Source of the DNA: Actinomycetes bacterium
GTDB lineage: Bacteria > Actinomycetota > Thermoleophilia > RBG-16-64-13
DNA: 42,356 bases
Assembly: GCA_021802965.1 (NCBI GenBank)
Contig: JAJZQZ010000003.1
Span: forward strand, 1-42,356
Direction: 5' to 3'
Every line of letters starts with the position of its first letter. The stretch's first letter is position 1. This document shows positions 4,792 through 20,163 of the stretch, one piece after another. The notes under the pieces were generated by a model. That model worked only from the letters and a program-made list of their open reading frames with translations. It had not been told where the DNA came from and ran no database searches. The position numbers and the translations under genes are program-made.

Positions 4792-5300
4792 ACCCCCGCC
4801 CGGCGGTCCTTGCCCCGGCCCACCCCACGCCCGCCCGCGCCGCCGCTCCGGCGGACGAGGTGACCGGGCCGCTCACCGTGAGCACCCATCGTCTCCGCTT
4901 CTCGACCCGGGGTGAGGGCGACGTGATCAACCTCACCGACGAGCTCGGCCAGGTGTTGCGGGAGACAGGGCTCATCGCCGGCACCCTCACCGTCTTCGCC
5001 CCGGGGGCGACGGGCGCGATCACGACCCTCGAGTTCGAGCCGGGCGCGGTGCGCGACTTTCAGCGCCTGTTCGATCAGATCGTCCCCCGCGACCAGCCGT
5101 ATGCCCACAATCTGCTTCTCAGCGACGGCAACGGACACTCGCACGTGCGCGCCGGTCTGCTCGGCCCCTCGGTCACCATCCCGTTCAGTGAGGGCCGCTT
5201 GTGCTTGGGCACCTGGCAGGAGGTGGTGTTCGTGTGCTTCGACGAACGACCGCGCGAGCGAACCGTGGTGGCGCAGGTGATGGGAGTGACAGCGGTATGA
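4788..5300 (+). CDS. YjbQ/UPF0047 family protein (secondary thiamine-phosphate synthase family)
   Basis: GATGAITTLEFEP, Y.H...DGNGHSHVRA.L.G.S and LGTWQ...FD..PRER motifs; ATGA overlap with the upstream gene. Confidence 0.92.
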   Translation: MNPRPAVLAPAHPTPARAAAPADEVTGPLTVSTHRLRFSTRGEGDVINLTDELGQVLRETGLIAGTLTVFAPGATGAITTLEFEPGAVRDFQRLFDQIVPRDQPYAHNLLLSDGNGHSHVRAGLLGPSVTIPFSEGRLCLGTWQEVVFVCFDERPRERTVVAQVMGVTAV

Positions 5301-6631
5301 GCTCAGCCGCCGAAAAGACCCCTCGAGCGAACAGCGCGAAACCCGGCGCTCCGCGACTGCAACTGGCTCTCGATTTCGTCGACCTGCCGCGGGCCCTCAA
5401 GGTTGCCGAGGAGGCGGTGCTCGGCGGCGCGGACTGGCTGGAGGCCGGGACTCCGCTCATCAAGAGCGAGGGGCTGCAGGCAGTCCGGGCCCTGCGCGAC
5501 CGCTGGCCCGAACACATCGTCGTGGCCGACATGAAGACCATGGACGCCGGCCGAGCCGAGGTCGAGTACGCGGCTAAAGCGGGGGCCCGCGTGGTGGGGG
5601 TGCTGGGGCTGGCCTCCGACGCCACCATCCGCGAGTGCGTCGAAGCCGGTCGCAACTACGGAGCCGAGATCATCGTGGACATGATCGGCGTGGCCGACCC
5701 GGTCGCCCGCGCCCGGGAGGTCGAGGCCCTTGGCGCCTCCTACGTGGGCATCCACGTGGCCATCGACGAGCAGATGGCCGGCAAGACGCCCTTCGACATC
5801 CTCCGGCAGGTGGCCGCCGCGGTCTCCATCCCCGTGGCCGTCGCGGGCGGCATCAATTCCGAGACCGCCGGCGAGGCGGTCGAGGCCGGCGCAGCCATCG
5901 TCATCGTGGGCGGCGCCATCACGAAGGCCACCGATGCCACCGAGGCCACGCGCCTGATCAAGCACGCGATCGCCCACCGGGTATCGGTGAAGTCAGACTA
6001 CTTCGTCCGCGCCAGCGGGGACGATCTGCGCGAGGTGCTCCTGCGGGTCTCCGCCGCCAACGTATCCGATGCACTCCACCGCTCGGGCGACCTTCCCGGC
6101 ATCGTCGCTCGAACGCCGGGCGCCAAGATGGTCGGACGGGCCGTGACGGTCCGCACCTATCCCGGTGACTGGGCAAAACCGGTGGAGGCCATCGACGTCG
6201 CCGAGGAAGGCGACGTGATCGTCATCGACGCCGGCGGCGTGCTGCCCGCGGTGTGGGGCGAGCTGGCGACGAACTCAGCGATCCAAAGAGGCTTGGCGGG
6301 CGTCGTCATCGCCGGAGCTGCCCGTGACACGGGCGATATCCGCGAGCTGGGTTTTCCGCTCTTTTCCTCCCACGTCACGCCCACTGCCGGCGAGCCCAAG
6401 GGTTTCGGCGAGATCGGCGTGCCCATCCGCATCGGAGGGGTGACGGTGTCGCCGGGCGACTGGATCGTCGGCGACGACGACGGGGTCTGCGTCATACCCA
6501 AGGAGAAAGCGGTCGAGTACACCAATCGGGCGATGGACGTCCTCGAACGAGAGAACCGGCTGCGGGGCGAGATCCTGGAGGGCAGCACGCTGAGCCAGGT
6601 CGCCTACCTCCTCAAGTGGGAGAAGAAGTAG
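5297..6631 (+). CDS. Bifunctional 3-hexulose-6-phosphate synthase / RraA (HMG-aldolase-like) fusion protein
   Basis: N-terminal HPS/KGPDC barrel: LQLALD, WLEAGTPLIKSEG, ADMKTMDAG..E, VAGGI, IVGGAIT. C-terminal RraA fold: NVSDAL, GRAVTV, AVWGELA, GAARD, PGDWIVGDDDGVCVIP. ATG at 5297 overlaps the yjbQ stop. Confidence 0.92.
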   Translation: MSSAAEKTPRANSAKPGAPRLQLALDFVDLPRALKVAEEAVLGGADWLEAGTPLIKSEGLQAVRALRDRWPEHIVVADMKTMDAGRAEVEYAAKAGARVVGVLGLASDATIRECVEAGRNYGAEIIVDMIGVADPVARAREVEALGASYVGIHVAIDEQMAGKTPFDILRQVAAAVSIPVAVAGGINSETAGEAVEAGAAIVIVGGAITKATDATEATRLIKHAIAHRVSVKSDYFVRASGDDLREVLLRVSAANVSDALHRSGDLPGIVARTPGAKMVGRAVTVRTYPGDWAKPVEAIDVAEEGDVIVIDAGGVLPAVWGELATNSAIQRGLAGVVIAGAARDTGDIRELGFPLFSSHVTPTAGEPKGFGEIGVPIRIGGVTVSPGDWIVGDDDGVCVIPKEKAVEYTNRAMDVLERENRLRGEILEGSTLSQVAYLLKWEKK

Positions 6632-6635
6632 CCCC

Positions 6636-7535
6636 CTAGGGCACCTTGACGAGCACGTTGTCGATGAGCCGTGTCGCGCCGAAGAACACCGCGGCGGCCA
6701 CGACGACCTCGCCTCTGACGACCTGCGGCTCTCTGAGGTCGTCCGCGGATACGACCTCGACGTAATCCACGCGGTCCGGGGGATCCTCGGCCAGGACCTT
6801 CAGGGCCGCGTCCTTGACAGCCCCGGCGTCGCGCTCACCCGACTCGAGGGCGTGTTGCGCAGCCCGGAGCGCCCGGTTCAGGATGGGAGCCCTCGCCCGC
6901 TGCTGCGGGGTGAGGTAGGCGTTGCGTGAGCTCATGGCCACGCCGTCGGCGTCGCGCACGATGGGGCATACGACCACCTCCACGCCCAGATCGAGGTCTG
7001 CGGCCATCCGACGGACGATCAGGGCCTGCTGGGCGTCCTTCTGCCCGAAGTAGGCGCGGTCCGGTCGACAGAGCGCGAACAGCTTGGTCACCACCGTCGC
7101 CACCCCGCGGAAGTGCCCAGGCCGGGCTCGTCCACACAGCACCTCCGACAAGCCCTCGACGTCGACCCAGGTGCAATGCCCCGGCGCGTACATCTCCTCT
7201 GCCGACGGGTGGAAGACGAGGTCCACTCCCTCGCCCGCCGCCAAGGAGAGGTCGCGATCCAGGTCGCGCGGGTAGCGGTCCAGGTCCTCGGCCGGGCCGA
7301 ACTGGGTGGGGTTGACGAAGATGGACATCACCACCAGGTCGTTCTCGACGCGCGCCCGCCGCGCGAGCGATAGGTGGCCCTCGTGCAGGAACCCCATGGT
7401 CGGCACCAGTCCGACCGAAAAAGGGCGGCCCTGGGCGATGCCGGCCACCCGGGCCGCCTCGAGCCGGGCCCGAAGGCCGTCCTTGCTCTCCACGACCTCG
7501 GGAAGCGACGCCGTCCCTTCGGGTGCGACCGTCAT
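6636..7535 (-). CDS. panC: Pantoate--beta-alanine ligase
   Basis: VPTMGFLHEGHLSL, SIFVNPTQF, RPGHFRGVATVV, FGQKDAQQ, MSSRN and TRLIDN motifs. True start taken as ATG 7535 within the longer 641-aa ORF. Confidence 0.97.
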   Translation of the reverse strand: MTVAPEGTASLPEVVESKDGLRARLEAARVAGIAQGRPFSVGLVPTMGFLHEGHLSLARRARVENDLVVMSIFVNPTQFGPAEDLDRYPRDLDRDLSLAAGEGVDLVFHPSAEEMYAPGHCTWVDVEGLSEVLCGRARPGHFRGVATVVTKLFALCRPDRAYFGQKDAQQALIVRRMAADLDLGVEVVVCPIVRDADGVAMSSRNAYLTPQQRARAPILNRALRAAQHALESGERDAGAVKDAALKVLAEDPPDRVDYVEVVSADDLREPQVVRGEVVVAAAVFFGATRLIDNVLVKVP

Positions 7536-7549
7536 GCCGTCTTCACCGA

Positions 7550-8542
7550 CTACAGATCCTCGAGGGCGGGGGCACCGTGCAGACTCCAGGCACAGCGGAC
7601 CGCGCGCCGGATAGAGCTCGCGACGGCATCGGCCGCCGCGCAGCCCAGCTGGAAGACGGTCACCGGCCGAAGGCCGGCGGAGAGGACGAACACCGCGTCG
7701 CCATCGATCGGGGTGTGGACGGGGCTGATCGCCCGGGCAAGCCCATCGTGCGCCATCCGCGCCACCTGACCGCACTGAGTCTTGTCCAGACGGGCGTCGG
7801 TGGCCACCACGGACAAGGTGGTGTGCTCGGCGCGAGCGTCGAAGCGGGGATGGTCCGAGACCGTCAGAACATAGGCATGGCTGTCGAGGAATCGCCCGTC
7901 GCGAACGGCGGCTCCCTCCCTGACCTCCTCGGGGCCCAGCCCGCCCGTGCGCGCCCCGGCCAGGATGGATCCATCCTCCGCCAGCACATCGCCGAACGCG
8001 TTGCAGACGGTCATGGCGGTGACGGTGACGCCACCCGGAAGAGCGACGCTGGCGACGCCGAAGCCGGACTTCATCCAGCCCTCCTCGCCCAGCATCTTGC
8101 CGACCGTCGCACCCGTTCCCACGCCCACCGACCCCTCCTCCACGGAGGCCGCCGCGGCCGCTGCCGCCCGATATCCGTCCTCGGCCCGGGGACGGCTCGT
8201 CGCATGGCCGAGTCCGAGATCGTAGATGACAGCGGCCGGGACCAGCGGGATCCGCCCGAAGGGGGTCTGGTAGCCGAAGCCCCGCTCCTCGAGATAGCGG
8301 ACCACGCCGTCGGCGGCGGCCAGGCCGAAAGCGCTCCCGCCGGCGAGCACCACCGCGTGAAGCTCGTTGACCGACGAGAACGGCGAGAGCAGATCCGTCT
8401 CGCGTGTCCCGGGTCCGCCGCCGCGCACTTCGAGGGACCCGACCACGCCGCGGGGAGCCACGACCACGGTGCAGCCGGTCCCGCCCACCGCGTCGGTGGC
8501 ATGCCCGACCAAGATCCCCTCGACCCCGATGAGGGCACTCAT
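7550..8542 (-). CDS. P1/S58 family (DmpA/ArgJ-like, ThnT-like) self-processing hydrolase
   Basis: VGHAT..GTGCTV, RGGGPGTRETDLL, GGSAFGL.AADGV, GSVGVGTGA, HTTLSVVATDA, AHDGLARAI.P.HT..DGD motifs. Confidence 0.92.
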   Translation of the reverse strand: MSALIGVEGILVGHATDAVGGTGCTVVVAPRGVVGSLEVRGGGPGTRETDLLSPFSSVNELHAVVLAGGSAFGLAAADGVVRYLEERGFGYQTPFGRIPLVPAAVIYDLGLGHATSRPRAEDGYRAAAAAAASVEEGSVGVGTGATVGKMLGEEGWMKSGFGVASVALPGGVTVTAMTVCNAFGDVLAEDGSILAGARTGGLGPEEVREGAAVRDGRFLDSHAYVLTVSDHPRFDARAEHTTLSVVATDARLDKTQCGQVARMAHDGLARAISPVHTPIDGDAVFVLSAGLRPVTVFQLGCAAADAVASSIRRAVRCAWSLHGAPALEDL

Positions 8543-8622
8543 CCCGGCGACCCTCCGCCACGAGGGGCGCTCATCGGAGGTGCCTGGCCCGCTGGTCGCG
8601 GAGCATCACTCTTCAGCACCGG

Positions 8623-10443
8623 CTACCGCGTGTTCTTGCGCAGGCCGTCGAGGAACTCGAAGTTCGACTTGGTGTCCTTGATCTTGTCGATGAGGAGCTC
8701 GATCGCCGCGTTCGGGTCGAGCGCGTGCAGCACGGAACGGAGCTTCCACACCATCTTGGACTCCGCGCCCTCCATGAGCAGCTCTTCCTTGCGCGTACCG
8801 CTCTTCTCGATGTCGATGGCCGGGAAGATCCGCTTGTTCGCCAGCTGGCGGGTCAGGTGGACCTCCCAGTTGCCCGTGCCCTTGAACTCCTCGAAGATGA
8901 CCTCGTCCATGCGCGAGCCCGTCTCGACGAGCGCCGTCGCGAGGATGGTCAGCGATCCGCCCTCCTCGATGTTGCGCGCGGCTCCGAAGAACTTCTTCGG
9001 CGGATACAGGGCGGTCGAGTCGACCCCGCCCGAGAGGATGCGCCCGGAGGCCGGCGCCGCCAGGTTGTACGCCCGCGCGAGCCGGGTGATGGAGTCCAGG
9101 AGCACCACGACGTCCTTGCCCACTTCCACCAAGCGCTTGACCCGCTCGAGCACCAGCTCGGTGACCTGCAGGTGGTTCTCCGAGGGCTGATCGAAGGTGG
9201 ATGAGACCACCTCCCCGTTGACCGAGCGCTCCATGTCGGTGACCTCCTCCGGGCGTTCGTCCACGAGCAGAACCAGGAGATGTACCTCGGGGTTGTTCTC
9301 GGCGATGGAGTTCGCTATCTCCTTCAAGATGGTGGTCTTGCCCGCCTTGGGAGGCGACACGATGAGACCGCGCTGGCCTTTCCCGAGCGGGCACACCAGG
9401 TCCATGATCCGGGGCGCTATGCGGTTCGGCTGGGTCTCGAGGCGCAGGCGCTGGTCGGGGAACAGCGGCGTGAGCTGCTCGAAGTTGGGCCGGTGCCGGG
9501 CCTGCTCGGGGTCGAGGCCGTTGACGGTCTGGATCTTGAGCAAAGCGTGGTACTTCTCGTTGTCCTTGGGCGTGCGCACCTGACCGGTGATCTCGTCGCC
9601 GCGGCGCAGCTTGAAGCGACGGATCTGCGAGAGAGACACGTAGATGTCGCTGTCGGACTGGGTGTACCCCTGCGTCCGCAGGAAGCCGAAGCCATCCGGA
9701 AGGACGTCGAGCAGTCCCGTGCGGTACTGCACCCCGCGGTCGGCCACCTGCTCCGACAGGATCTTCACGATCAAATCCTGCTTCGAGTACTTGCGGTAGT
9801 TCTTGATGCCCAGCTCCGACGCCACCACGTGCAGGTCGGACACGAGCCTCGGCTCGGTCTCGATGAGGTCGCCCCGCTCCCGGCTGTCGATCCGTTCCTG
9901 CCCCTCCGCGAGCGGGGGCCGGTCCGGGCGAGGCGGCCGCTGGGGCCTCTCCGGGCGCTCGAGCTGCTCAGGAAGCTCGGGGCGCACGGGTCGCCCCGCC
10001 TCCCCAGAGGCCGGGCGGTCAGAGGCCCCCACAGACGGACCTGCCGCCGCGCGGGCGACGGGAGCCTCAGAGCGCGCGACCGGAGCGTCGGCGCGTGTGG
10101 CGGGAGCCTCCCGGCCCGCGGCAGGGGGCTCAGCGCTCGCGGCAGGAGCGGGACCTTCGCCGTTCGTCGGTTCGGCGCGGGGCGTTCGGGCAGGACGCGC
10201 CGCCGCAGGGCGACGAGCGGGCGCGCGACGCGGTGCCGGCGCGCCGGCCTCGGCCTTCGCGGACGCCGCCGGTGCCGGAGGTTCGGAGGGAGCCTCCTTC
10301 TCAGGGGTGAGGGTAGCGGCGACGTCGCCGTCAGGGCCGGCGGGTTCGGCGGCGGAAGGTTCGGGCGCCACCACGGTGGTGGCGCCGTCCTCCGCGGTGG
10401 TCTTTTCTGTCTCTTCTACGGTCGGTTCCATGTCTGTTATCAC
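8623..10443 (-). CDS. rho: Transcription termination factor Rho with a long low-complexity N-terminal extension
   Basis: [63 protein letters not shown] and SGTRKEELL motifs. Start GTG 10443 (AGGAG upstream) or ATG 10431. Confidence 0.97.
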
Positions 10444-10493
10444 GTTCTCCTGGGGGTCATGGGTCGTGGGGGTCGTACCCCGGGTCGTCTTGT

Positions 10494-11528
10494 TCACAGC
10501 CGGATCTCCCGGCGTTCGTCTGAGAAAAGGTGGATAGTGTCGACGAAGCGCACGATCCGGCAGCGGGTACACATGGTCAGGGTGTGACTCCGGGCGCCCT
10601 CTCGAAAATAGTCCACTCCACGCAAGAAGTCGCCGCCGGTGACACCGGTGGCCGCGAAGACCACATCGCCGAGGACCAGGTCGTGCGTGTGCAGCACCAT
10701 CTCGATATCGTCGATGCCATGCTGCGCCGCCTTCTCGACCTCTCGGCGAGAGAGCGGCCACAGCTTTGCTTGGATCTGCCCGCCGAGGCAGCGCATAGCG
10801 GCTGCGGTCATCACTCCTTCGGCTGCACCCCCGATCCCGATGTACAGGTGGTCGCCCGTCCCGTCGACGGCAGCCGCTATCGAAGCCGTGATGTCACCGT
10901 CAGCGATGAGCTTGATACGTGCCCCCGCCTTGCGGATATCGGCCACCAAGCTCTCGTGTCGGGGCCGGTCGAGCATGATCACGGTGAGGTCGGCCACCGA
11001 CCGGTCGTAGGCCTGCGCGACTGCCATCAGATTGTCGGCTACCGGAGCCTCGATGTCGATGCTACCGGCGGCACGAGGACCGACGACCAGCTTCTGCATG
11101 TACATGTCGGGCAGGGAGAGGATCTGGCCGGGCGCGCCTACCACGAGGACGCTCATGGCCCCGCCCTGCCCGCGGGCCACCGTGTCGGTGCCCTCGAGGG
11201 GGTCGACCGCGATGTCGCAGTCCACGCTGCCGCTTCCGATGCGATCGCCCACGCGGATTCCTCCCGCGCTGCCTTCCTCACGTTCTCCGATCACCACCCG
11301 GGCGGTCACCGGCAGCTCTCGCAGAGCCGCCCGCATCGCTTCCGCGGCGGCCTCGTCGGCGACCACGCTGTCCCCTTGACCCATGAAGCGTCCCGCGGCG
11401 AGCGCCGCCGCTTCGGTCACACGGGTGAACTCGGCGCACAAGCATGGAGGGCCCATGCCGCTCTGGTCGACCTCCCCTGGGCTCGTCGACATCTCCCGGC
11501 TCCCTCTCCCGCCTCGGATCTCGCTCAC
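10494..11528 (-). CDS. glpX: Fructose-1,6-bisphosphatase class II
   Basis: [51 protein letters not shown] and FAATGVTGG motifs. Start may instead be ATG ~11457. Confidence 0.93.
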
Positions 11529-12478
11529 GCCACACCCGCCGCCGCTCGTGATTCAGACGCGGCGATGCGCTCGTACAGGGCATCGACGACGAGACCCACA
11601 GTGTCGTCGATGTTGACGTTCTCGATCAACAACGCACCTTCCTCAGCCGCGCGACCGATGATGAACTCCTGGATGCGCCGTATCTCTTCGAAGTTGGCCA
11701 GGTACCGACGCACGGGCCGCCGCCCGATGGTCTCGCGCTCGCGCACCAGGAAGTGGCTGCGGTGCAACTCGGCGTCGCGCACCACGACTATCATCGGCAG
11801 AACGACCGCGTTCTCCTTACCCGTCAAGGGCAGAAACCCCGGGACCACATGGACTCCCTCCACGATCAGGCTCGTCCCTTCCTTGACCGCCCGGTCGACG
11901 ATCGCGGCCAGGCCGACGTTCACCATCTCCACCTGCTCGACGAAGCCCACCACGTGCGGGTCCAGGTACGTCCCCATCGGCGCGCGAATGGCCTTGCCCG
12001 CGTCGAACGACGAGAAGTGGATCTCCGGCATGAGGGCTCGGGAGAAGAAGGTCCTCATCACCTGACGGATAGAGTCCGTGGAGATGATCCTGACGATGCC
12101 CATGCGGCTGGCAAGCTGGGTGGCGAGAGTGCTCTTGCCGACCCCGGTGGCGCCGCCGATCAAGATGATGACCGGCCGATCTTCGAGACCGAGTCGGTAC
12201 CACTTCTCGTAGCGCTGCAGGTAGTCCTGTCCTTCCATCTCCCCGAGGATGCGGGCGACGAATCCCTGGAGCTCGTCGATGCTCACACGGAGCACGCTGC
12301 GGCTGCGAAGCTCGCGTTCGACCTCCTGCGCCACCCGATAGGCCCGGTCAGGGGATAAGCCCGTCGCCGTCAGGGATTGCGCGAGGAGGCCCTTTGAAAA
12401 AGGGATCCCGTGCTGCTGGTTGACAATCTGGATCTGATCGCCACCCTCAGCGCTCGTCCTCTCGCTGCTCTCATCCAC
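11525..12478 (-). CDS. pgk2: 2-phosphoglycerate kinase (ATP-cone + P-loop)
   Basis: PFSKGLLAQSL ATP-cone-like N-terminus; ILIGGATGVGKSTLA, ISTDSIR, SSF, IVEGVH..PG, HRSHF..R and YL.NF..IR.IQ motifs; adjacent to cpgS. Confidence 0.9.
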   Translation of the reverse strand: MDESSERTSAEGGDQIQIVNQQHGIPFSKGLLAQSLTATGLSPDRAYRVAQEVERELRSRSVLRVSIDELQGFVARILGEMEGQDYLQRYEKWYRLGLEDRPVIILIGGATGVGKSTLATQLASRMGIVRIISTDSIRQVMRTFFSRALMPEIHFSSFDAGKAIRAPMGTYLDPHVVGFVEQVEMVNVGLAAIVDRAVKEGTSLIVEGVHVVPGFLPLTGKENAVVLPMIVVVRDAELHRSHFLVRERETIGRRPVRRYLANFEEIRRIQEFIIGRAAEEGALLIENVNIDDTVGLVVDALYERIAASESRAAAGVA

Positions 12479-13943
12479 GGCGTTCGTAGCGCTCCTGTGC
12501 TATCTCCGCCAACCGGCGGCACGTCTCGGCGAGATCGCCTTCCTGGGCCGGCGAGACCTCCCGGGGCTCGTTGTCCATGAAGACCACCGGCAGCTCTCGC
12601 CGTTCGGCTTCCACAGCCACCATGTCGATGGCCGCGGCCTTTATCTCGGTCAGGAACAGCTCCACATCGGTCGACTCCGCCGCCCGCAGATCGTCAGCCA
12701 GAGCACGCCGATCCGAGAGGTTGCCCGACCACAACCGGACAGTGCATCCATGCTCCTCTTCGAGGTGGCGCTTGAGCAAAGGTGCCTGGACACTCGGCGC
12801 GGTCGAGAAACAGGCCACTCTCCGCCCGGACACGTCCTGCGCCGGCCGATGCCGGAACACCACAGGGATGACCGGGATACCCGGCTTCTCCTGCGCCACC
12901 GCCGTCATCAAGTCTCGCACGGCACCAACGTCTGCAAGGGGCGCCTCCGCCATCGTCAAGACAACCGCATCGCTGATCAACACCCGGTACGTCCCCAGGT
13001 ACCCCGCCAGCTGCCCGCGAGGCTGATGGGCCCCGGCGACCAGTAGGCGGGCATCGGTGGCCACCGGCGGGATCGACGAACCGCTCCCTTCGAAGACCAC
13101 CATCCCGGCGCCCAGCTCGTTCGCCCGCAGGGCGCCTTCCGCCACGTTCGAGACCAACGGCTCCCCGGCGAGCCCACCGCCACACCGGCGGCATCCGACG
13201 GTGAGGACCCGGCTGAGGACGGCGTCCTCGAAGTGGTCGGAAGCGGCGTGACGACCCGCCCGACTCCACCTGAGTAACTCTTCGCTGCCCAGGGATACCG
13301 CGCTGCCATCTATCACTTCAGGTTCGGCCGGACCGCCTCGTCCCATGGCGACGACCACCACGGCCGGAGAAGCCCCGCCACCGCTGCGGGAGCCGGCTCC
13401 GGCTTCAGCGGTCTCACCCAGAAGCCTGGCCAGATACCCGCTGATCGCCGTCTTGCCGACACGTTTGCCTGTGCCGATGACAGAAAGCGACGGGGATGTG
13501 GCGATGCGGTCGAGCCGAGGGGGTGTGAAACGGAAGTCGGACCCTTCGTACGTGACGTTCCGGGCAAGAGTGTGGCTGATCAGCCGGAACCTACCCGGGT
13601 ACCCTACCACAGGCTCGTCGCTCGCGTCAACGACCACCTCGGGCCGGTACGAGTCGAGAGCCGCCGTCAACGCCGCGACCTGATCGGGGCCCGAGACGAC
13701 GGGCAGGTTATATATCCTCTCCGCCTCTGTCGCCCAGCGCCCCGGGTCGCTCGGCGCGACCTTCTCGGTCCCGCCGAGGAACACAGCCGCCAGGAAGCGA
13801 TAGCGCGGCGCCAGCTGCTCGAGAGCGTCCACCACGACGGGAGGGTAGTGCTCCCCGTCGATGAGGACCACCGCCGGGCGAGGGGAGCCCGGGTGTCCCG
13901 GCGCGGACCCGCCGCCGGCGCCCTCGCCCTCCGGGCTGCTCAC
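12471..13943 (-). CDS. cpgS: Cyclic 2,3-diphosphoglycerate synthetase
   Basis: LIDGEHYPPVV, GGTEK, SDEPV, GTGKRVGKTA, VAMGRGGP.EPE, HAASDHFEDA, GCRRCGGGLAG, EGSG..IPP and TEIKAAAID motifs, matching the archaeal cDPGS family. Confidence 0.92.
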   Translation of the reverse strand: MSSPEGEGAGGGSAPGHPGSPRPAVVLIDGEHYPPVVVDALEQLAPRYRFLAAVFLGGTEKVAPSDPGRWATEAERIYNLPVVSGPDQVAALTAALDSYRPEVVVDASDEPVVGYPGRFRLISHTLARNVTYEGSDFRFTPPRLDRIATSPSLSVIGTGKRVGKTAISGYLARLLGETAEAGAGSRSGGGASPAVVVVAMGRGGPAEPEVIDGSAVSLGSEELLRWSRAGRHAASDHFEDAVLSRVLTVGCRRCGGGLAGEPLVSNVAEGALRANELGAGMVVFEGSGSSIPPVATDARLLVAGAHQPRGQLAGYLGTYRVLISDAVVLTMAEAPLADVGAVRDLMTAVAQEKPGIPVIPVVFRHRPAQDVSGRRVACFSTAPSVQAPLLKRHLEEEHGCTVRLWSGNLSDRRALADDLRAAESTDVELFLTEIKAAAIDMVAVEAERRELPVVFMDNEPREVSPAQEGDLAETCRRLAEIAQERYERRG

Positions 13944-14758
13944 AGGTCGCTTATCACCCGGTCGAGGTGGGCGTCATGCCGTATGTAGGTCGACGCCGCG
14001 GCGTCGAACTCGACGACCACCTCGCCGCCGTGGAAGGGGTACCGTCGAGTGACCGTCACCCTCTCCCCTTCGATGTCGATCACGTTGTAGCAGGGCTTCG
14101 TGGTGCCCCGCAGGCGCAGCGTGGAGACCGTGCCCGTGTTGACGATGAACATGTTCTCCAAGCGCCAGGCGTAGGGCACGTGCTTGTGTCCCGACAAGAC
14201 CAGGTCGACCCCGCAGCCGACGAGGACCTCCAGAACGTCGCCGGCGTCGTGCACCACGTTGCGCTCGCGTCCCGTGCCGGGGATGGGCAGCAGGTGATGG
14301 TGAAGGGCGAATATCTTGAAGTCGCCGGGCTGCTCCATGAGCGCGTCGCGGATCCACGGGTACCTATGGCGCCCGATGCGGCCGTTGTCCAGGTCGGGCT
14401 CGGTAGAGTCCACCCCCACCACGGTGCACCCGCCCGTGCGGATGACCGAGTCGCGGCGCTCGAAAAGCGTCTCGAAGTGCATGTAGCCCACATTGCGGCT
14501 GTCGTGGTTACCCGGTACGACCATGGTCAGGGGGCACTGCAGACGGTCGAGGTACTCCTTGGCCTCGCGGTACTCCTGCCGGAAGCCCATGTTGGTGAGG
14601 TCTCCGGTGACGACCACCAGATCGGGCGCGAGGTCGTTGACCTCGACGAGGGCCCGGTTGAGCATGTTGGGCACGAAGTACTGCGAGCCCGCATGGATAT
14701 CCGAAAGGTGCACGATGCGCATGTGACGCACCTTCGGGCTCCGCGGCTCGACGCTCAT
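13940..14758 (-). CDS. Calcineurin-like metallophosphoesterase (CpdA/Icc-like)
   Basis: All five metal-binding motifs present: SDIH, TGDLT, PGNHD, LHHH and SGHKH. Overlaps the cpgS start. Confidence 0.92.
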   Translation of the reverse strand: MSVEPRSPKVRHMRIVHLSDIHAGSQYFVPNMLNRALVEVNDLAPDLVVVTGDLTNMGFRQEYREAKEYLDRLQCPLTMVVPGNHDSRNVGYMHFETLFERRDSVIRTGGCTVVGVDSTEPDLDNGRIGRHRYPWIRDALMEQPGDFKIFALHHHLLPIPGTGRERNVVHDAGDVLEVLVGCGVDLVLSGHKHVPYAWRLENMFIVNTGTVSTLRLRGTTKPCYNVIDIEGERVTVTRRYPFHGGEVVVEFDAAASTYIRHDAHLDRVISDL

Positions 14759-14762
14759 CGCC

Positions 14763-15725
14763 TCACTCCACCCGCGGTCCGCCGCTCGACGCCCCGCTCA
14801 GCCCTTCCCGGACGCCGTTCGCCAGGGAATTCCCAAGAGAACGCGCCAGGTCGCCCGCGCGGGCGCCGAAGAGCAGGGGCAGAATACCGCCCGACGACTC
14901 GGGCTCCATGTACCGCACCCCGTAGTCGCCGGTATCCAGCTGGGCCAGCCGGGCGGCCTCGTCCAGGGCGTCCGCGTAGGAGCCGACCTTGTCGATCAGG
15001 CCCAGCTGCAGCGCTTCCTCGCCGGGGTACGTCAGTCCGTTCGCCAGCGCCGCCACCTGCTTCTCGTCGAGGTTCTGCCGCCCCTCGGCCACGTCGGCGA
15101 TGAACCGCTGGTAGATCTTCTCCATCTGCGCGGACAGGATGGCTTTCTCCTGGGCGGTCATCTCTCTCGCAGGACTGCCGATGTCCTTGTACTCCCCCTT
15201 GGTGATCACCGTGTAGCCGACGCCTATCTTCTCGAAAAGCCCCTGCAGGTCCTGCGCGGTGAGGATCACCCCGATGCTGCCCACCTCGGATGACGGTGCC
15301 GCGACGATGGAATCCGCCGCGCTGGAGAAGTAATACGCACCCGACGCGACCACATCGGCCACCGACACGACCACCGGTTTCTGCATCTCGCGGACCGCCT
15401 GGTAGATCTCCCACGAGGCGGCCGGGCTGCCGCCCGGGCTGTTGACCCGCAAGACCACGGCGTCGATGCTCGAGTCGGCGTCGGCGTCGCGCAGGGTCTC
15501 CGCGGCCCACACCGGGTCGATGCCCCCGCCGCCGTAGAGCGAAGCCTGAGAGTCGGCCGAGATGACACCGTCGAGGCGCACCACGCCGACGGTGCCGCTA
15601 CTGCCCCAACTTGCTCCACCGCGCCCGCCGCCGTCGCCGAAGTAGAAGAGCAGGCCCAAGAGGGCCGCGTACATCACGGCGATGACGACGCCCACGATCA
15701 AGACGATCTTCCAGCCTTTCGACAC
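14763..15725 (-). CDS. sppA: Signal peptide peptidase SppA (S49, short form)
   Basis: N-terminal TM segment; LRVNSPGGS, ASGAYY, GSIGV, KGEYKD and GLIDKVG motifs. Confidence 0.94.
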   Translation of the reverse strand: MSKGWKIVLIVGVVIAVMYAALLGLLFYFGDGGGRGGASWGSSGTVGVVRLDGVISADSQASLYGGGGIDPVWAAETLRDADADSSIDAVVLRVNSPGGSPAASWEIYQAVREMQKPVVVSVADVVASGAYYFSSAADSIVAAPSSEVGSIGVILTAQDLQGLFEKIGVGYTVITKGEYKDIGSPAREMTAQEKAILSAQMEKIYQRFIADVAEGRQNLDEKQVAALANGLTYPGEEALQLGLIDKVGSYADALDEAARLAQLDTGDYGVRYMEPESSGGILPLLFGARAGDLARSLGNSLANGVREGLSGASSGGPRVE

Positions 15726-17003
15726 CTACAGCACCCGTATGGTCGCGGGCCGACTCTTCACGCAAGACAACGCGGCCACCTTCTCGATGGCGGCGAAGAA
15801 GCCGCGCTCCACGGTGGGGTGGGTGATGACCATCAGCTCGGCTTCGTCACCCTGGCCCTTCTGGATCATGCTCTCGATCGAGACGTCGTGATCGCCGAAG
15901 ATGGAGGCGATCTGGGCCAGCACTCCCGCGCGGTCCTCCACCTTGAAGCGCGTGAAGAACGCGGAGCGCATCTCGCCGTCGGGGAACCGGTCGAGGTCCC
16001 GTCGGCAGGAACAGTTCTGGAGGAAACCGGCGGAATCGGTCCCGACGATGTTCATGATGTCGCTGACCACCGCGGTGGCCGTCGGCGGACCACCGGCCCC
16101 GGGCCCGGTGAGCATGATCTCGTCGATCGTGTGGCCGCGGAGATATACGGCGTTGTACGAGCCGTTGATAGACGCAAGCAGGTGGCCCTCCGGCACGAGA
16201 GCCGGGTGCACGCGGACGTTCACACGCCCGTCGACCAGGCGGGCGGCTCCGATGAGCTTGACTACGAAACCGAAGTCCTTGGCGTACTGGACGTCGTCCA
16301 GGGTGACGTCCTGGATGCCCTCGTAGGTCACGTCGGCCATGGTCACTCGGGTGCGGAACGCGATGGAAGCGAGGATGGCCATCTTGGCGGCGGCGTCGCC
16401 GCCGCCCACGTCAGCGGTGGGATCGGCCTCGGCGTAGCCCAGCTCCTGGGCCTTCTTCAGGGTCTCGGCATAGTCGCCCTCTCCACGATACAGAGCCGTG
16501 AGGATGTAGTTGGTCGTGCCGTTGACGATGCCGTACACGGTGTGGAGGTCGGCGGCGATCATCCCCTCACGCATGACCTTGATCACCGGGATGGCTCCCC
16601 CGACCGAGGCCTCGAAGCGGATCTGGCGCCCCAGTTGCGCGGCCAGTTCGAACAGCCCCGCGCCGCGGTTGGCAAGGAGCTGCTTGTTGGCGGTCACCAC
16701 GTCTCGCCCGCCTCGCAGGGCCGCCTCGACGAAGGTGAACGCCCAGTCGGTCCCACCGATGAGCTCCACCACGATCGAGACGGCCGGATCGTCGAGCACG
16801 CGCTTGAAGTCGTCGGTGAAGAGCTCGGCGGGGGCGTCGACCCCCGCGCGACTGAAGTCCTTCTCGACGATATGCGCCACCCGCAGGTCGATCCCGGTCA
16901 GGTCCAGGATCGCGTCGTGCTCCTGCTCTATCACCCTGTAGACGTTCGACCCGATGGTGCCGAAGCCCAGCAGGCCGACGCGCACCGCGTTCGCCTCCGC
17001 CAT
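15726..17003 (-). CDS. hom: Homoserine dehydrogenase with C-terminal ACT domain
   Basis: GLLGFGTIG, VVTANK, FEASVGGAIP, GIVNGTTNYIL, AQELGYAEADPTADVGG.DAAAK, GPGAG and ACT DRAGVLAQI motifs. Confidence 0.97.
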   Translation of the reverse strand: MAEANAVRVGLLGFGTIGSNVYRVIEQEHDAILDLTGIDLRVAHIVEKDFSRAGVDAPAELFTDDFKRVLDDPAVSIVVELIGGTDWAFTFVEAALRGGRDVVTANKQLLANRGAGLFELAAQLGRQIRFEASVGGAIPVIKVMREGMIAADLHTVYGIVNGTTNYILTALYRGEGDYAETLKKAQELGYAEADPTADVGGGDAAAKMAILASIAFRTRVTMADVTYEGIQDVTLDDVQYAKDFGFVVKLIGAARLVDGRVNVRVHPALVPEGHLLASINGSYNAVYLRGHTIDEIMLTGPGAGGPPTATAVVSDIMNIVGTDSAGFLQNCSCRRDLDRFPDGEMRSAFFTRFKVEDRAGVLAQIASIFGDHDVSIESMIQKGQGDEAELMVITHPTVERGFFAAIEKVAALSCVKSRPATIRVL

Positions 17004-17012
17004 GGACGCCTC

Positions 17013-18332
17013 CTAGCCGTGCAACGGACGCTGTTCGGCCACCATGTCGGCATAGCTCTCGCGTTCGACGATCACGCGCGCCACACCGTCACGCACCAGC
17101 AGCACCGCCGCCCGCGGATTGCCGTTGTAGTTCGAAGCCATCGAGAAGAAATAGGCGCCGGTCACAGGGGTCACGAGGATGTCGCCCACCTGCGGTCTCG
17201 CGATGAGGGCGTCCTTGACGAGGATGTCGCTGCTCTCGCAATGCTTGCCGGCGACCGTGACCGTGGTGTCCGCGGGGTCCTCCGCGCGGTTCGCGATCAT
17301 GGCCTCGTACACCGCCCCGTAGAGCATCGGTCGCATGTTGTCACTCATGCCACCGTCGACACTCACGTACGTACGGATGCCCGGCACTTCCTTGATGTTG
17401 CCCACCCGATACGCGGTCACGCCCGCTTTGGCCACGACCGAGCGACCCGGCTCGACCAGCACCCGCGGCATGGGCAGGCCCACCCGCTCCATCTCCTGTC
17501 GTACGCCCTCGACCTTGCCCGCCACGTACTCCTCGATGCTCATGGGGGTGTCTTCGCCGGTGTAGCGGATCCCGAGCCCGCCCCCGATGTTGAGATAGCG
17601 GCACTCGAACCCGTCGCGGTCGCGCGCCTCCTTCAGGAGGTCGACCAGGACCGAGATGGCGGTGCGGAAACCCTCGATCTCGAAGATCTGACTGCCTATG
17701 TGCGCGTGCAGCCCCACGAGGTCAAGATGGGGCGCGGCGAGGGTCCGGCGGATCGCTTCCCCCGCATGCCCCTCAGCCAAGCCGAACCCGAACTTCGAGT
17801 CGAGCTGCCCGGTCTGGATGTAGTGGTGCGTGTGAGCTTCCACGCCCGGGGTGATGCGGAGCAGGACCTTCTGCCGGCGGTCGCGCTCGGCGGCCATGCT
17901 CTCGAGCAGCCCGATCTCGTCGAAGCTGTCGACCACCACGTAGCCGACGCGCTCGTCCAAGGCATAGGTGAGCTCTCGGGGCGTCTTGTTGTTGCCATGG
18001 AGGAAGATGCGCTCGGGCTCGATCCCGGCCGCCAGGGCGGTGTACAGCTCGCCGCCGCCGGACACGTCGATCGAGAGCCCCTCCTCGGCGATCAGCTGGC
18101 AGACGGCGATCGTGCAGAAGGCCTTGCTCGCGTAGATGACCTCGAAGTCGTCGGTGCGCTCACGGAAGGCGGCCATGAACCGGCGGCATTGGTCGCGCAG
18201 CGTCTTCTCTTCGTAGACCATGAGGGGTGTGCCGTGCTCGGCCACCAGATCGACCATGTCACAGCCGTCGATCTCCAGGTGCCCCGCGGCGTTGTGAGTG
18301 GCGTTGACGGGGTAGATGAGAGTATGGGTCAT
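17013..18332 (-). CDS. lysA: Diaminopimelate decarboxylase
   Basis: YASKAF, SGGEL, HGNNK, HAHIGSQI, NIGGG, EPGRS, GKHCESSD, GAY and MASNYN motifs; ATG at 18332. Confidence 0.97.
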   Translation of the reverse strand: MTHTLIYPVNATHNAAGHLEIDGCDMVDLVAEHGTPLMVYEEKTLRDQCRRFMAAFRERTDDFEVIYASKAFCTIAVCQLIAEEGLSIDVSGGGELYTALAAGIEPERIFLHGNNKTPRELTYALDERVGYVVVDSFDEIGLLESMAAERDRRQKVLLRITPGVEAHTHHYIQTGQLDSKFGFGLAEGHAGEAIRRTLAAPHLDLVGLHAHIGSQIFEIEGFRTAISVLVDLLKEARDRDGFECRYLNIGGGLGIRYTGEDTPMSIEEYVAGKVEGVRQEMERVGLPMPRVLVEPGRSVVAKAGVTAYRVGNIKEVPGIRTYVSVDGGMSDNMRPMLYGAVYEAMIANRAEDPADTTVTVAGKHCESSDILVKDALIARPQVGDILVTPVTGAYFFSMASNYNGNPRAAVLLVRDGVARVIVERESYADMVAEQRPLHG

Positions 18333-18416
18333 TGGCGCTCCCGCAGCAGAATGTGCGCTGACACGGTACCATACGCCCACCCGGCCTTGGGCATCCCGCG
18401 GAGGACTGCTCCCCTT

Positions 18417-18425
18417 TGCTAGAAT
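18417..18425 (+). promoter_or_regulatory. Extended -10 promoter (TGcTAGAAT) for the 18438 gene-hpt operon; very short leader
   Basis: TGCTAGAAT ends 12 nt before ATG 18438, and there is no SD sequence. Confidence 0.5.
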
Positions 18426-18437
18426 GAGTCTCACAGC

Positions 18438-18806
18438 ATGAGCGAGGAGACACCCACCTTCGCGTACTACCGCGGCGCCAAGCCGCCCCGATTCGCCACC
18501 CGCACCGAGCTCGAGGCCGCCCTCATCCTCGACTACCATCGGGTACCCTGGGAGTACGAACCGCGTACCTTCATCCTCGAGAAGGACGCCCAGGGCAACA
18601 TCGTCGAAGCGTTCACCCCGGACTTCTACCTGCCCGATCTGGATCTCTACATCGAGGTCACCCAGATGAAGCAGTCCCTGGTGACCACCAAGAACCGCAA
18701 GGTGCGCCGCCTGCGCGAGCAGTACCCCGAGATCCGCATCAAGCTGCTGTACAAGCACGACTTCGTCCAGCTGGCGAAGAAGTTCGACCTCGCGCCTCCC
18801 CGATGA
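18438..18806 (+). CDS. Small PD-(D/E)XK nuclease-fold hypothetical protein
   Basis: WEYEP, FTPDFYLP and YIEVT motifs; strong GC3 codon bias; ATGA overlap with hpt. Confidence 0.8.
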   Translation: MSEETPTFAYYRGAKPPRFATRTELEAALILDYHRVPWEYEPRTFILEKDAQGNIVEAFTPDFYLPDLDLYIEVTQMKQSLVTTKNRKVRRLREQYPEIRIKLLYKHDFVQLAKKFDLAPPR

Positions 18807-19357
18807 GCACCGAGGCGAGCCGCGGCCTCGTCGGCGACCCGTACCTGACAGCCGAGGCCCTGGCGCGGCGCGTGGCCGAACTCGGGGCCGAGATCACCCG
18901 TGACCACCGGGGGACCGACCTGCTCCTGGTATCGGTCCTCAAGGGAGCCCTCTTCTTCATGGCCGACCTCGCGCGGGCCATCGATCTGCCCCTCGAGATG
19001 GATTTTATGGCGATCACCTCCTACGAGATAGACAAGCGGGCCCGGCAGGGCGGAGGGCACGCCGCCATCAGGTTCCTGAAGGACTTGGACAAGCCCATAC
19101 AGAGCAGGAACGTGCTCATCGTGGAGGACATCATCGATACCGGCCTGACCCTGCACTACATCATGCGCAGCCTCTCCCTGCGCGAACCACTCTCCCTCGA
19201 AGTCTGCACCCTGTTCGACCGTCCGTACCGGCGTCTCGCCGACATCCCGGTCAAATACGTGGGCTTCACGGTGCCCGACGATTTCTTCGTGGGCTACGGC
19301 TTCGACTACCGCCAATTGCACCGCAACCTGCCCTACGTGGCTCACCTCAACATATGA
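18803..19357 (+). CDS. hpt: Hypoxanthine phosphoribosyltransferase
   Basis: VLKGALFFMADL, VLIVEDIIDTGLT (PRPP motif) and FFVGYGFDY...RNLPY motifs. Confidence 0.93.
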   Translation: MSTEASRGLVGDPYLTAEALARRVAELGAEITRDHRGTDLLLVSVLKGALFFMADLARAIDLPLEMDFMAITSYEIDKRARQGGGHAAIRFLKDLDKPIQSRNVLIVEDIIDTGLTLHYIMRSLSLREPLSLEVCTLFDRPYRRLADIPVKYVGFTVPDDFFVGYGFDYRQLHRNLPYVAHLNI

Positions 19358-20163
19358 CCGACGTCGAGGCATCTTCGGGCGTTCGGGTCGAAGAGGTTCA
19401 TTTCCACAGCCTGCGGGCCGCGGGGTGTCCGGAGGCCGAGCCGCCCCTGCTGGCCGGGACCTTCTTCGTGCCGACGCCGGCAAGCTCCGACCCCGCCGGA
19501 CAGACGCGCTTCCCGGGGCTCGTCGTCGGGCATGGCGCCGGCAGCAACCGCCACCGACATGCGTCCTTCTGCCAGATCGCCTGCACGGTCGGCATGACCG
19601 TCCTGAGCATCGATTTCCGGGGCCACGGAGAGAGCACCGGACTCGTCGACGGGCCCCTGGAAGCCGACGTCGTCGCGGCGGCCGCCGTGTTGCGCCGGCA
19701 CCCGTCGGTGCACGGAGGGCCGATCGGGTACCGAGGCTCGAGCATGGGTGGTTTCTACGGCCTCCGAGCGGCGCCGGAGGCCGCGTTCGCGGCGCTGTGC
19801 TTGCTCTGCCCCGCGAGCGAGGCGGTGCTGCTGCGGGGCCTCACCTCTTTCGATGAAGACACCCTTGCCGCCCGCGGGCTTTCGCTTCGAGCCGACATCG
19901 AGGCTCTACGGGCCTGGCTGGAAGCTTCCGACAGTCTCGCGGTCGCCGCCCGCGTGAGCGACCCGGTGCTGCTCGTGCACGCCCGGGGCGACGACGTGGT
20001 GCCGCTCGACCACTCCCTGGCCCTGGCGGCGGCGTTGGCGGGACCGGTCGAGACGATGATCCTGCCCGGCGGCGGCCACGGGACGGCACAGGCTTCGCCG
20101 GAGTTGCACCGGCGGACCAGCGAGTGGCTGGTGGGGCGTCTACGCGAGGCGAGGCGGGAGTAG
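19354..20163 (+). CDS. Alpha/beta hydrolase
   Basis: HGAGS, DFRGHGES, nucleophile elbow GSSMGG, HARGDDVVP and GGGH (Ser-Asp-His triad). Confidence 0.88.
   Translation: MTDVEASSGVRVEEVHFHSLRAAGCPEAEPPLLAGTFFVPTPASSDPAGQTRFPGLVVGHGAGSNRHRHASFCQIACTVGMTVLSIDFRGHGESTGLVDGPLEADVVAAAAVLRRHPSVHGGPIGYRGSSMGGFYGLRAAPEAAFAALCLLCPASEAVLLRGLTSFDEDTLAARGLSLRADIEALRAWLEASDSLAVAARVSDPVLLVHARGDDVVPLDHSLALAAALAGPVETMILPGGGHGTAQASPELHRRTSEWLVGRLREARRE

Follow-up and report, generated by a model that had tools for sequence, protein, structure and literature searches.

A putative three-gene module for cyclic 2,3-diphosphoglycerate metabolism in a housekeeping operon of a Thermoleophilia-type actinobacterium

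The DNA analysed here (the window, 42,356 nucleotides of contig JAJZQZ010000003.1, assembly GCA_021802965.1) comes from an Actinomycetes bacterium of the Thermoleophilia lineage, uncultured and living in soil or mine water, and carries on its minus strand three consecutive, overlapping genes, which encode homologues of 2-phosphoglycerate kinase (2PGK) and of the synthetase of cyclic 2,3-diphosphoglycerate (cDPG; its synthetase is abbreviated cDPGS) and a calcineurin-type metallophosphoesterase. We consider it probable (roughly 0.6) that together they form a cDPG module of three genes within a housekeeping operon, by which cDPG would be both made and drawn down. The enzymes belong to known families that are already annotated automatically, and the locus is a typical instance among hundreds; the value of the finding lies in the unpublished breadth of cDPG pathway genes in bacteria and in the candidate that it supplies for the hydrolase.

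In passages of PMC10690619 and of a preprint (10.1101/2025.02.21.639460), cDPG is described as exclusive to hyperthermophilic methanogens and is studied as an industrially interesting extremolyte, and a part of PMC7554672 treats cDPGS in thermophilic ammonia-oxidising archaea. The pathway outlined in the section concerned of De Rose et al. (2023; PMC10690619) runs from 2PGK to cDPGS by way of a 2-pyrophosphate intermediate. By the same steps, the window 2PGK would convert 2-phosphoglycerate and ATP to 2,3-diphosphoglycerate (2,3-DPG), and cDPGS would turn 2,3-DPG and ATP into cDPG, ADP and phosphate; with the 2-pyrophosphate intermediate formed, attack by the 3-phosphate would free phosphate and close the cyclic pyrophosphate that is cDPG. 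The metallophosphoesterase encoded upstream would most likely reopen or dephosphorylate cDPG, so that the pool would be both built and drawn down.

The three proteins and their overlapping genes

The genes of the proposed module are the following (positions are those of the window).

11525-12478, minus strand: 2-phosphoglycerate kinase homologue of 317 amino acids (NF003259; ATP-cone and P-loop)
12471-13943, minus strand: cDPG synthetase homologue of 490 amino acids (PDB 8ork/8oru; PF27272 label)
13940-14758, minus strand: calcineurin-type metallophosphoesterase of 272 amino acids (PF00149; candidate cDPG hydrolase)

The 490-residue protein matches the cDPGS of Methanothermus fervidus (PDB 8ork) over its full length, the unique N-terminal domain included (phmmer E 5.6e-100; query residues 20-482 against residues 3-452 of the 460-residue chain), and another cDPGS chain, PDB 9sxb, on which our literature search returned no paper, matches with an E value of 1.9e-81. 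The window synthetase and its relatives carry the precomputed Pfam label PF27272; the copies of Pfam and NCBIfam that were searched, which are without the PF27272 model, gave no match to the synthetase because the family model is newer than those copies. Its motifs comprise a Walker A sequence, GTGKRVGKT (157-165), together with HAASDH (232-237) and LTEIKAAA (431-438). The ligand residues of M. fervidus cDPGS named in the structural part of PMC10690619 are E45 and K46 (partner subunit), K145, R146, K149, T150, D208, E305, P335, T353, E404 and K406; the Lys-Arg pair contacts 2,3-DPG, D208 is an Mg ligand, E45 and K46 reach in from the other subunit, and E305, P335, T353, E404 and K406 make contacts with adenosine, ribose and phosphate away from the P-loop. 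Mapping by hand on the phmmer alignment gives as window equivalents E60, K61, K160, R161, K164, T165, D236, E333, T381, E433 and K435. When the window synthetase was aligned with 52 diverse representatives, 32-58% identical to it, K160, R161, K164, T165, E433 and K435 proved invariant (53/53), while D236 is kept in 50, K61 and T381 each in 51, E60 in 48 and E333 in 34 of the 53 sequences. Judged by this mapping, which has no equivalent for P335, every mapped 2,3-DPG, Mg and ATP ligand residue is conserved in the window synthetase, and the protein looks like a catalytically competent cDPGS. It differs from the M. fervidus enzyme in a 20-residue N-terminal extension and in an insert of about 11 residues, rich in Gly, Ala and Ser, past the P-loop helix.

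The 317-residue kinase scores best in NCBIfam with two models of 2-phosphoglycerate kinase (NF003259, E 5e-94; NF008994, E 4.1e-93); NF003259 aligns with 315.1 bits over profile positions 5-297 of 306, its N-terminal part included, and the next model that is not a 2PGK model, NF008995, reaches only 129.8 bits. A Pfam ATP-cone domain occupies residues 26-92 and the P-loop, GGATGVGKST, begins at residue 108. Over approximately residues 21-303 the kinase is 36-39% identical to the best homologue in each of three Methanobacteriaceae genomes. No solved structure of any 2PGK was found, and the structural relatives share the P-loop only.

A preliminary description of this DNA, made from the sequence alone, had named the two genes as cDPGS and 2PGK with full sets of motifs and had proposed the M. 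fervidus enzymes as the standard for profile searches. Both identities are upheld, that of the synthetase by the full-length match to 8ork and the conserved ligand residues, and that of the kinase by P-loop, ATP-cone and best profiles that are 2PGK over nearly the whole model; the possibility that the kinase would fall closest to some other P-loop family was examined and is not the case. The two-gene account nevertheless overlooked the co-inherited metallophosphoesterase directly upstream. This 272-residue protein scores 75.8 bits against PF00149 (gathering cut-off 21.5) and has all five metal motifs (DIH at 20, GDL at 52, GNHD at 83, HHH at 153 and GHKH at 190), with no obvious membrane segment on reading its sequence. 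Across loci it is 52-83% identical and better conserved than cDPGS. The automatic names given in the sources are generic, either cAMP phosphodiesterase CpdA/Icc or plain metallophosphoesterase.

The adjacent and overlapping synthesis genes lie exactly where they had first been placed, and both reading frames are uninterrupted. At the synthetase/kinase junction, GTGGATGA, the overlap is 8 bp, the GTG start of the kinase lying within the last codons and the TGA stop of the synthetase. Phosphoesterase and synthetase share 4 bp at the cDPGS start (GTGA), as do the kinase stop and the next gene, glpX (again GTGA). These start/stop overlaps of 4, 8 and 4 bp indicate translational coupling.

Distribution, linkage and inheritance

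Relatives of the synthetase form at least 8000 clusters at 90% identity with E <= 1e-10, many of which already bear the name 2,3-diphosphoglycerate synthetase in public annotation. A confirmed relative is present in at least 546 species-level genomes, as found by a locus scan with a 12-sequence alignment, the 53-sequence alignment being too diverse for this use. The best 80 of these at least 546 genomes belong to Thermoleophilia/Gaiellales, Rubrobacter(aceae), Coriobacteriia, Aquicultor, Acidimicrobiia and Bacillota metagenome-assembled genomes (MAGs), plus five archaea. A sample of 301 genomes drawn evenly from the phylum holds cDPGS in 177, and its presence is all or none by family (our families f9, 21/21; f19, 24/24; f21, 22/22; f18, 11/11; f14, 0/13; f15, 0/14; f20, 0/10). 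Eleven of the 301 are flagged as unpublished, all with cDPGS and the phosphoesterase; leaving them aside gives 166/290 for cDPGS and 164/290 for the phosphoesterase. The earlier statement that bacterial homologues are sparse is therefore not sustained, and within this phylum of bacteria the module is both widespread and ancient. The statement that they are little studied agrees with our literature search, in which the enzyme and the compound, combined with Actinobacteria, Rubrobacter, Thermoleophilia, Gaiella and Coriobacteriia, gave no paper that treats a cDPG pathway in bacteria, the coverage being without supplements and most subscription journals; bacteria are the subject of none of the papers listed under the enzyme's name. 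Among 121 archaeal genomes, sampled from the phylum that contains Methanobrevibacter cuticularis, 112 have cDPGS, and the gene is thus not restricted to hyperthermophiles even within the archaea. A further paper (PMC7819960), to judge from its listing, reportedly deals with cDPGS in thermophilic ammonia-oxidising archaea.

cDPGS and 2PGK are present in the same 22 of 31 related genomes (that of the window included), where they are adjacent; these include 17 of the 18 other members of the window's family. The phosphoesterase follows the same pattern: it is found in 21 of the 22 cDPGS-positive relatives and in none of the nine negative ones, and in the phylum sample 174 genomes have both genes, three cDPGS only (G058, G222 and G293 in our numbering), one the phosphoesterase only (G151) and 123 neither. 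The phylum-sample counts were read by eye from two presence lists and, since related genomes are not independent, the co-occurrence represents a pattern rather than a statistic. Gene neighbours were counted in 86 other bacterial loci wherever the flank sufficed. In 73 of 81 such loci the gene directly upstream of cDPGS, on the same strand, is that of the phosphoesterase (the eight others being L010, L030, L064, L068, L074, L079, L083 and L092), and 2PGK lies beside cDPGS in 61 of 82, directly downstream in 58 and directly upstream in three. The 21 loci without an adjacent kinase are accounted for by all 17 loci of the Rubrobacteria clade, by three from Bacillota MAGs and by L092; each of the five Rubrobacteraceae genomes examined has a kinase homologue, 37-41% identical, at another place in the genome. 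The order (hom)-(sppA)-phosphoesterase-cDPGS-2PGK-(glpX)-rho is repeated across classes, with rho after the module in most actinobacterial loci, and hom and rho are retained in genomes with or without cDPGS.

In three relatives assembled in few contigs (G002:C9:493050-496265, G009:C20:118415-121571 and G010:C8:64010-67219), cDPGS and 2PGK are each split into two to three frame-shifted pieces and the adjacent phosphoesterase is intact, which may reflect either indels introduced by long-read sequencing or a genuine decay of the two genes for synthesis. In the archaea, the locus of a Thermoplasmatota archaeon (L084) has the order cDPGS-2PGK-phosphoesterase. Phosphoesterase homologues, 41-50% identical to the window protein, occur in 108 of the 121 genomes of the archaeal sample, which, with 112 of them cDPGS-positive, offers little contrast and weak support for a link between the two genes. 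Many genomes of that sample (G331-G450) contain two or three phosphoesterase paralogues, some of them 25-45 kb from cDPGS on the same contig.

The inheritance of cDPGS was followed in a maximum-likelihood tree of 92 sequences, unrooted and built by a quick method with SH-aLRT support. The window sequence groups with that of its genus mate (98), the same-genus copy being 68% identical at the protein level, a distance at which synonymous sites would be saturated, and the pair falls within a 21-row clade of its own family and Gaiellales-type MAGs (100), then within a 30-row Thermoleophilia-type clade (96). The latter is sister (94) to a 17-row clade (100) that holds all 15 Rubrobacteria-labelled rows and two unlabelled ones. 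Twelve of the 13 Coriobacteriia rows stand in a separate 21-row clade (100), alongside one Clostridia, one Actinomycetes and seven unlabelled rows, and the thirteenth (L040) is sister to that clade (94). The cDPGS phylogeny thus follows class-level taxonomy. The five archaeal rows share a starred set of 12 rows with sequences from Bacillota and from unnamed bacteria; because the quick tree is unrooted, has eleven rows of deviant composition and includes only these five archaea, it carries no inference on the direction of transfer between the domains.

The composition of the two synthesis genes matches that of their neighbours. GC is 0.687 in the synthetase and 0.640 in the kinase, against 0.653-0.682 in lysA, hom, sppA, the phosphoesterase, glpX and rho, and about 0.63-0.73 throughout the window; GC at third codon positions is 0.80 and 0.84, respectively, against 0.81-0.905 in the neighbouring genes. 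No mobile-element genes were found beside the module, which is flanked by lysA-hom-sppA and glpX-rho. A base composition like that of the neighbours, a position inside a housekeeping gene string and a long residence had all been proposed in the preliminary description; GC at all and at third positions bears out the first, the lysA-hom-sppA-...-glpX-rho order the second, and the conserved hom-rho gene order, the shared presence in 22 of 31 genomes and the class-congruent tree the third. Together, the tree and the native composition rule out a recent acquisition.

Flanking genes and host

The remaining genes of the conserved string are as follows.

8623-10761, minus strand: rho, at the downstream limit of the conserved string (domains Rho_RNA_bind, Rho_N and ATP-synt_ab)
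10494-11528, minus strand: GlpX-type class II fructose-bisphosphatase homologue (TIGR00330)
14763-15725, minus strand: sppA (Pfam and NCBIfam matches)
15726-17003, minus strand: hom (Pfam and NCBIfam matches)
17013-18758, minus strand: lysA (Pfam and NCBIfam matches)

From lysA to rho the minus-strand genes are packed almost without gaps; the TAG stop of hom abuts the GTG start of sppA, the stop of which lies 4 nt ahead of the phosphoesterase ATG. A scan of positions 6000-20000 for promoters and terminators gave one promoter-like and six terminator-like sites, against 0.8 and 4.3 expected, and is uninformative. Rfam and ARAGORN scans found two tRNAs only, both distant from the module, and PADLOC gave weak, uninformative matches only. 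Beyond the downstream end of the string, an open reading frame (ORF) of 476 amino acids (5201-6631, plus strand) combines an OMP-decarboxylase/HUMPS-family domain (51-251) with an RraA-like aldolase domain (286-431) and is possibly a fusion enzyme. The panC ORF (6636-8561, minus strand, 641 amino acids) matches pantoate ligase in residues 356-636 only, and in the 712-residue rho ORF the domains begin at residue 307, after a part rich in Pro, Ala, Glu and Arg; each ORF either carries a long extension at its N-terminus or has been called too long in this GC-rich DNA.

The GlpX-type protein scores 299.6 bits against TIGR00330 (cut-off 259.3) and 259 bits against the fructose-1,6-bisphosphatase (FBPase) II of Mycobacterium tuberculosis (PDB 6ayy), and its gene follows the module in Thermoleophilia-type and Rubrobacteraceae loci. 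Its DPLEGT stretch, likewise retained at locus L011, corresponds to DPIDGT of the M. tuberculosis enzyme. The window protein also retains the Thr that the 6ayu chain has as Ser and which we take to be the catalytic Thr of FBPase II. In 22 of 22 related loci with near-full-length GlpX-like copies R, Q, H, L or V stands in place of this Thr, and GEGE has been lost as well. In genome G000 a separate class I FBPase is encoded on contig C205, and no class V FBPase was found there. Because the Thr and GEGE are lost in the relatives and a separate class I FBPase is present, the GlpX-like gene of the operon may, in this lineage, be shifting towards a function other than that of an FBPase.

The analysed MAG measures 3.24 Mb in 263 contigs and is 78% complete, the window being its contig C54; among named genomes, MAGs of Thermoleophilia and Gaiellales stand closest to it. 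The best-matching DNA runs are labelled as mine drainage and mine tailings metagenomes. In a mine tailings run from a second study, contigs cover 25 of 30 bins of positions 10494-15725, mostly at >=99% identity, and represent the same population in another sample. Two metatranscriptome runs from the study of the best DNA match gave no match to the stretch, a result without bearing on expression. Proteome composition gives a growth temperature of about 43 °C, a crude value (ORFs picked by codon-position GC), and the host is not a hyperthermophile.

Function of the module and alternative readings

The system of M. fervidus (PDB 8ORK, apo; 8ORU, with ADP, Mg and 2,3-DPG; De Rose et al., 2023) employs the same two enzyme families as the window. 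The window synthetase matches its counterpart over the full length, with the mapped ligand residues and Walker A kept, and the kinases agree in architecture and in best-scoring profile. Unlike M. fervidus, the window host is a non-hyperthermophilic bacterium in which the genes, known here from the DNA alone, overlap and stand in a housekeeping operon with a phosphoesterase; the N-terminal extension and insert of the synthetase and a kinase score under the equivalog cut-off are further differences. For the breakdown of cDPG, hydrolysing activities have been described in Methanothermobacter thermautotrophicus, one of them due to a membrane-bound hydrolase that K+ and phosphate inhibit (Sastry, 1992; van Alebeek, 1994; as summarised in a passage of Roberts, 2005, PMC1224877). 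The reaction proposed for the window phosphoesterase is the same, a reopening of the cyclic pyrophosphate that would return carbon and phosphate to metabolism. Because the phosphoesterase is linked to and co-occurs with cDPGS, and because cDPG hydrolysis is reported in a methanogen, it is a reasonable candidate for the breakdown step, although we put this at somewhat less than an even chance. Unlike the membrane-bound hydrolase of M. thermautotrophicus, the window protein shows no obvious membrane segment, and its tie to cDPG is one of neighbourhood and co-occurrence; since the passage in PMC1224877 leaves the gene unnamed, the two cannot be compared by sequence.

Several observations weigh against the module as we read it. 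The score of the kinase, 315.1 bits, is below the curated NF003259 equivalog cut-off of 343, and its family includes members with other substrates, e.g. mevalonate-3-phosphate 5-kinase (NF008996). In the synthetase, P335 of M. fervidus had no mapped counterpart (chain position 335 was counted as Phe), and the FRPxP stretch near the ATP site contains His365, where 49 of 53 sequences have Pro. The closest solved relatives of the phosphoesterase are the diesterases GpdQ and Rv0805, at E values of about 1e-9 to 1e-10 only, and its homologues in the archaeal sample are not adjacent to cDPGS, occur in one to three copies per genome and associate with it more loosely (104 genomes with both, eight with cDPGS only, four with the phosphoesterase only and five with neither; n = 121). 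The points on the kinase favour a reading in which both enzymes are real and act on another substrate or form another product (2,3-DPG itself, e.g. as a mutase cofactor, or a different cyclic pyrophosphate), with no cDPG pool; NF008995 also represents family members with other substrates, the statement in PMC10690619 that cDPG is exclusive to hyperthermophilic methanogens points the same way, and the stress passage of the Gaiella genome paper (PMC6741124) names mannosylglycerate, trehalose and di-myo-inositol-phosphate as Rubrobacter solutes without mention of cDPG. We nevertheless hold this reading to be distinctly improbable, as there is little or no variation at the positions where the M. 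fervidus structure shows contacts to 2,3-DPG and Mg, the kinase is strictly co-inherited with an enzyme dedicated to cyclisation, and cDPGS-adjacent archaeal kinases score no higher than that of the window. In a comparison of partial translations against NF003259, three Methanobacteriaceae kinases pass the cut-off with 390-410 bits, whereas the cDPGS-adjacent kinases of a Methanolliviera MAG (304 bits) and a Natronoplasma MAG (286 bits) both fail and three other bacterial kinases (280-293 bits) lie below it. The 343-bit line would thus divide Methanobacteriaceae-like kinases from the rest and not cDPGS-linked from unlinked ones. Although membership of NF003259 by curated score is not reached, 2PGK function is supported by the domain architecture, the best-match status and the strict partnership with cDPGS.

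The phosphoesterase might also have no relation to cDPG, being for instance a phosphodiesterase for cyclic nucleotides or glycerophosphodiesters that simply happens to stand in the conserved hom-rho neighbourhood. The automatic names CpdA/Icc or metallophosphoesterase, the position of GpdQ and Rv0805 as closest solved relatives, the unlinked, multi-copy homologues of the archaeal sample and the presence of hom and rho irrespective of cDPGS all speak for this possibility. GpdQ glycerophosphodiesterase (2zo9/3d03) and the Rv0805 cyclic-nucleotide phosphodiesterase are binuclear metallophosphoesterases of the same superfamily and with the same metal motifs as the window protein; the matches to them, about 42 bits (E about 5e-10) over 180 residues only, do not allow substrate specificity to be transferred. 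The close co-occurrence of the phosphoesterase with cDPGS in the relatives and the phylum sample, its place as the gene directly upstream in 73 of 81 bacterial loci, with a 4-bp overlap in the window, and its adjacency to cDPGS-2PGK in the Thermoplasmatota locus argue against it, and an unrelated role seems unlikely to us, if not negligibly so. A recent horizontal acquisition of the cDPGS-2PGK pair from archaea, as an island, is by contrast very improbable. The pathway was first characterised in archaea, and five archaeal rows lie among bacterial ones on the unrooted tree; this reading is already contradicted, however, by the neighbour-like composition, the position inside the lysA-to-rho string without flanking mobile-element genes, the all-or-none presence by family and the placement of the window cDPGS with its own family in a starred 21-row clade, inside the Thermoleophilia-type clade sister to Rubrobacteria, with no close archaeal identity seen.

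If the three genes act together as a cDPG module, the compound probably serves in this host as a stress-protective anionic solute and/or a reserve of phosphate, carbon and energy, and not for protection against extreme heat, in view of a host that is no hyperthermophile and of the module's linkage to genes of gluconeogenesis and housekeeping. Roles proposed for archaeal cDPG besides thermoprotection, in the corresponding passage of PMC10690619, are the storage of phosphate and energy and a defence against oxidative damage. These storage and oxidative-protection roles, like a dedicated hydrolase, would be the better fit for a host of this kind. More tentatively, and with the odds in our estimate against it, the conserved phosphoesterase may be the long-unidentified cDPG hydrolase, so that a full make-and-break cycle of cDPG would serve many Actinomycetota that are not thermophiles (Thermoleophilia, Rubrobacteria, Coriobacteriia and others) as a phosphate, carbon and energy buffer and a stress solute; cDPG would then be neither exclusively archaeal nor heat-specific. 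If the genes are active, the search for cDPG would widen to the Actinomycetota of soil, sediment and mine water, and the loci would provide mesophilic, high-GC enzyme variants for cDPG production as well as a concrete gene candidate for its degradation.

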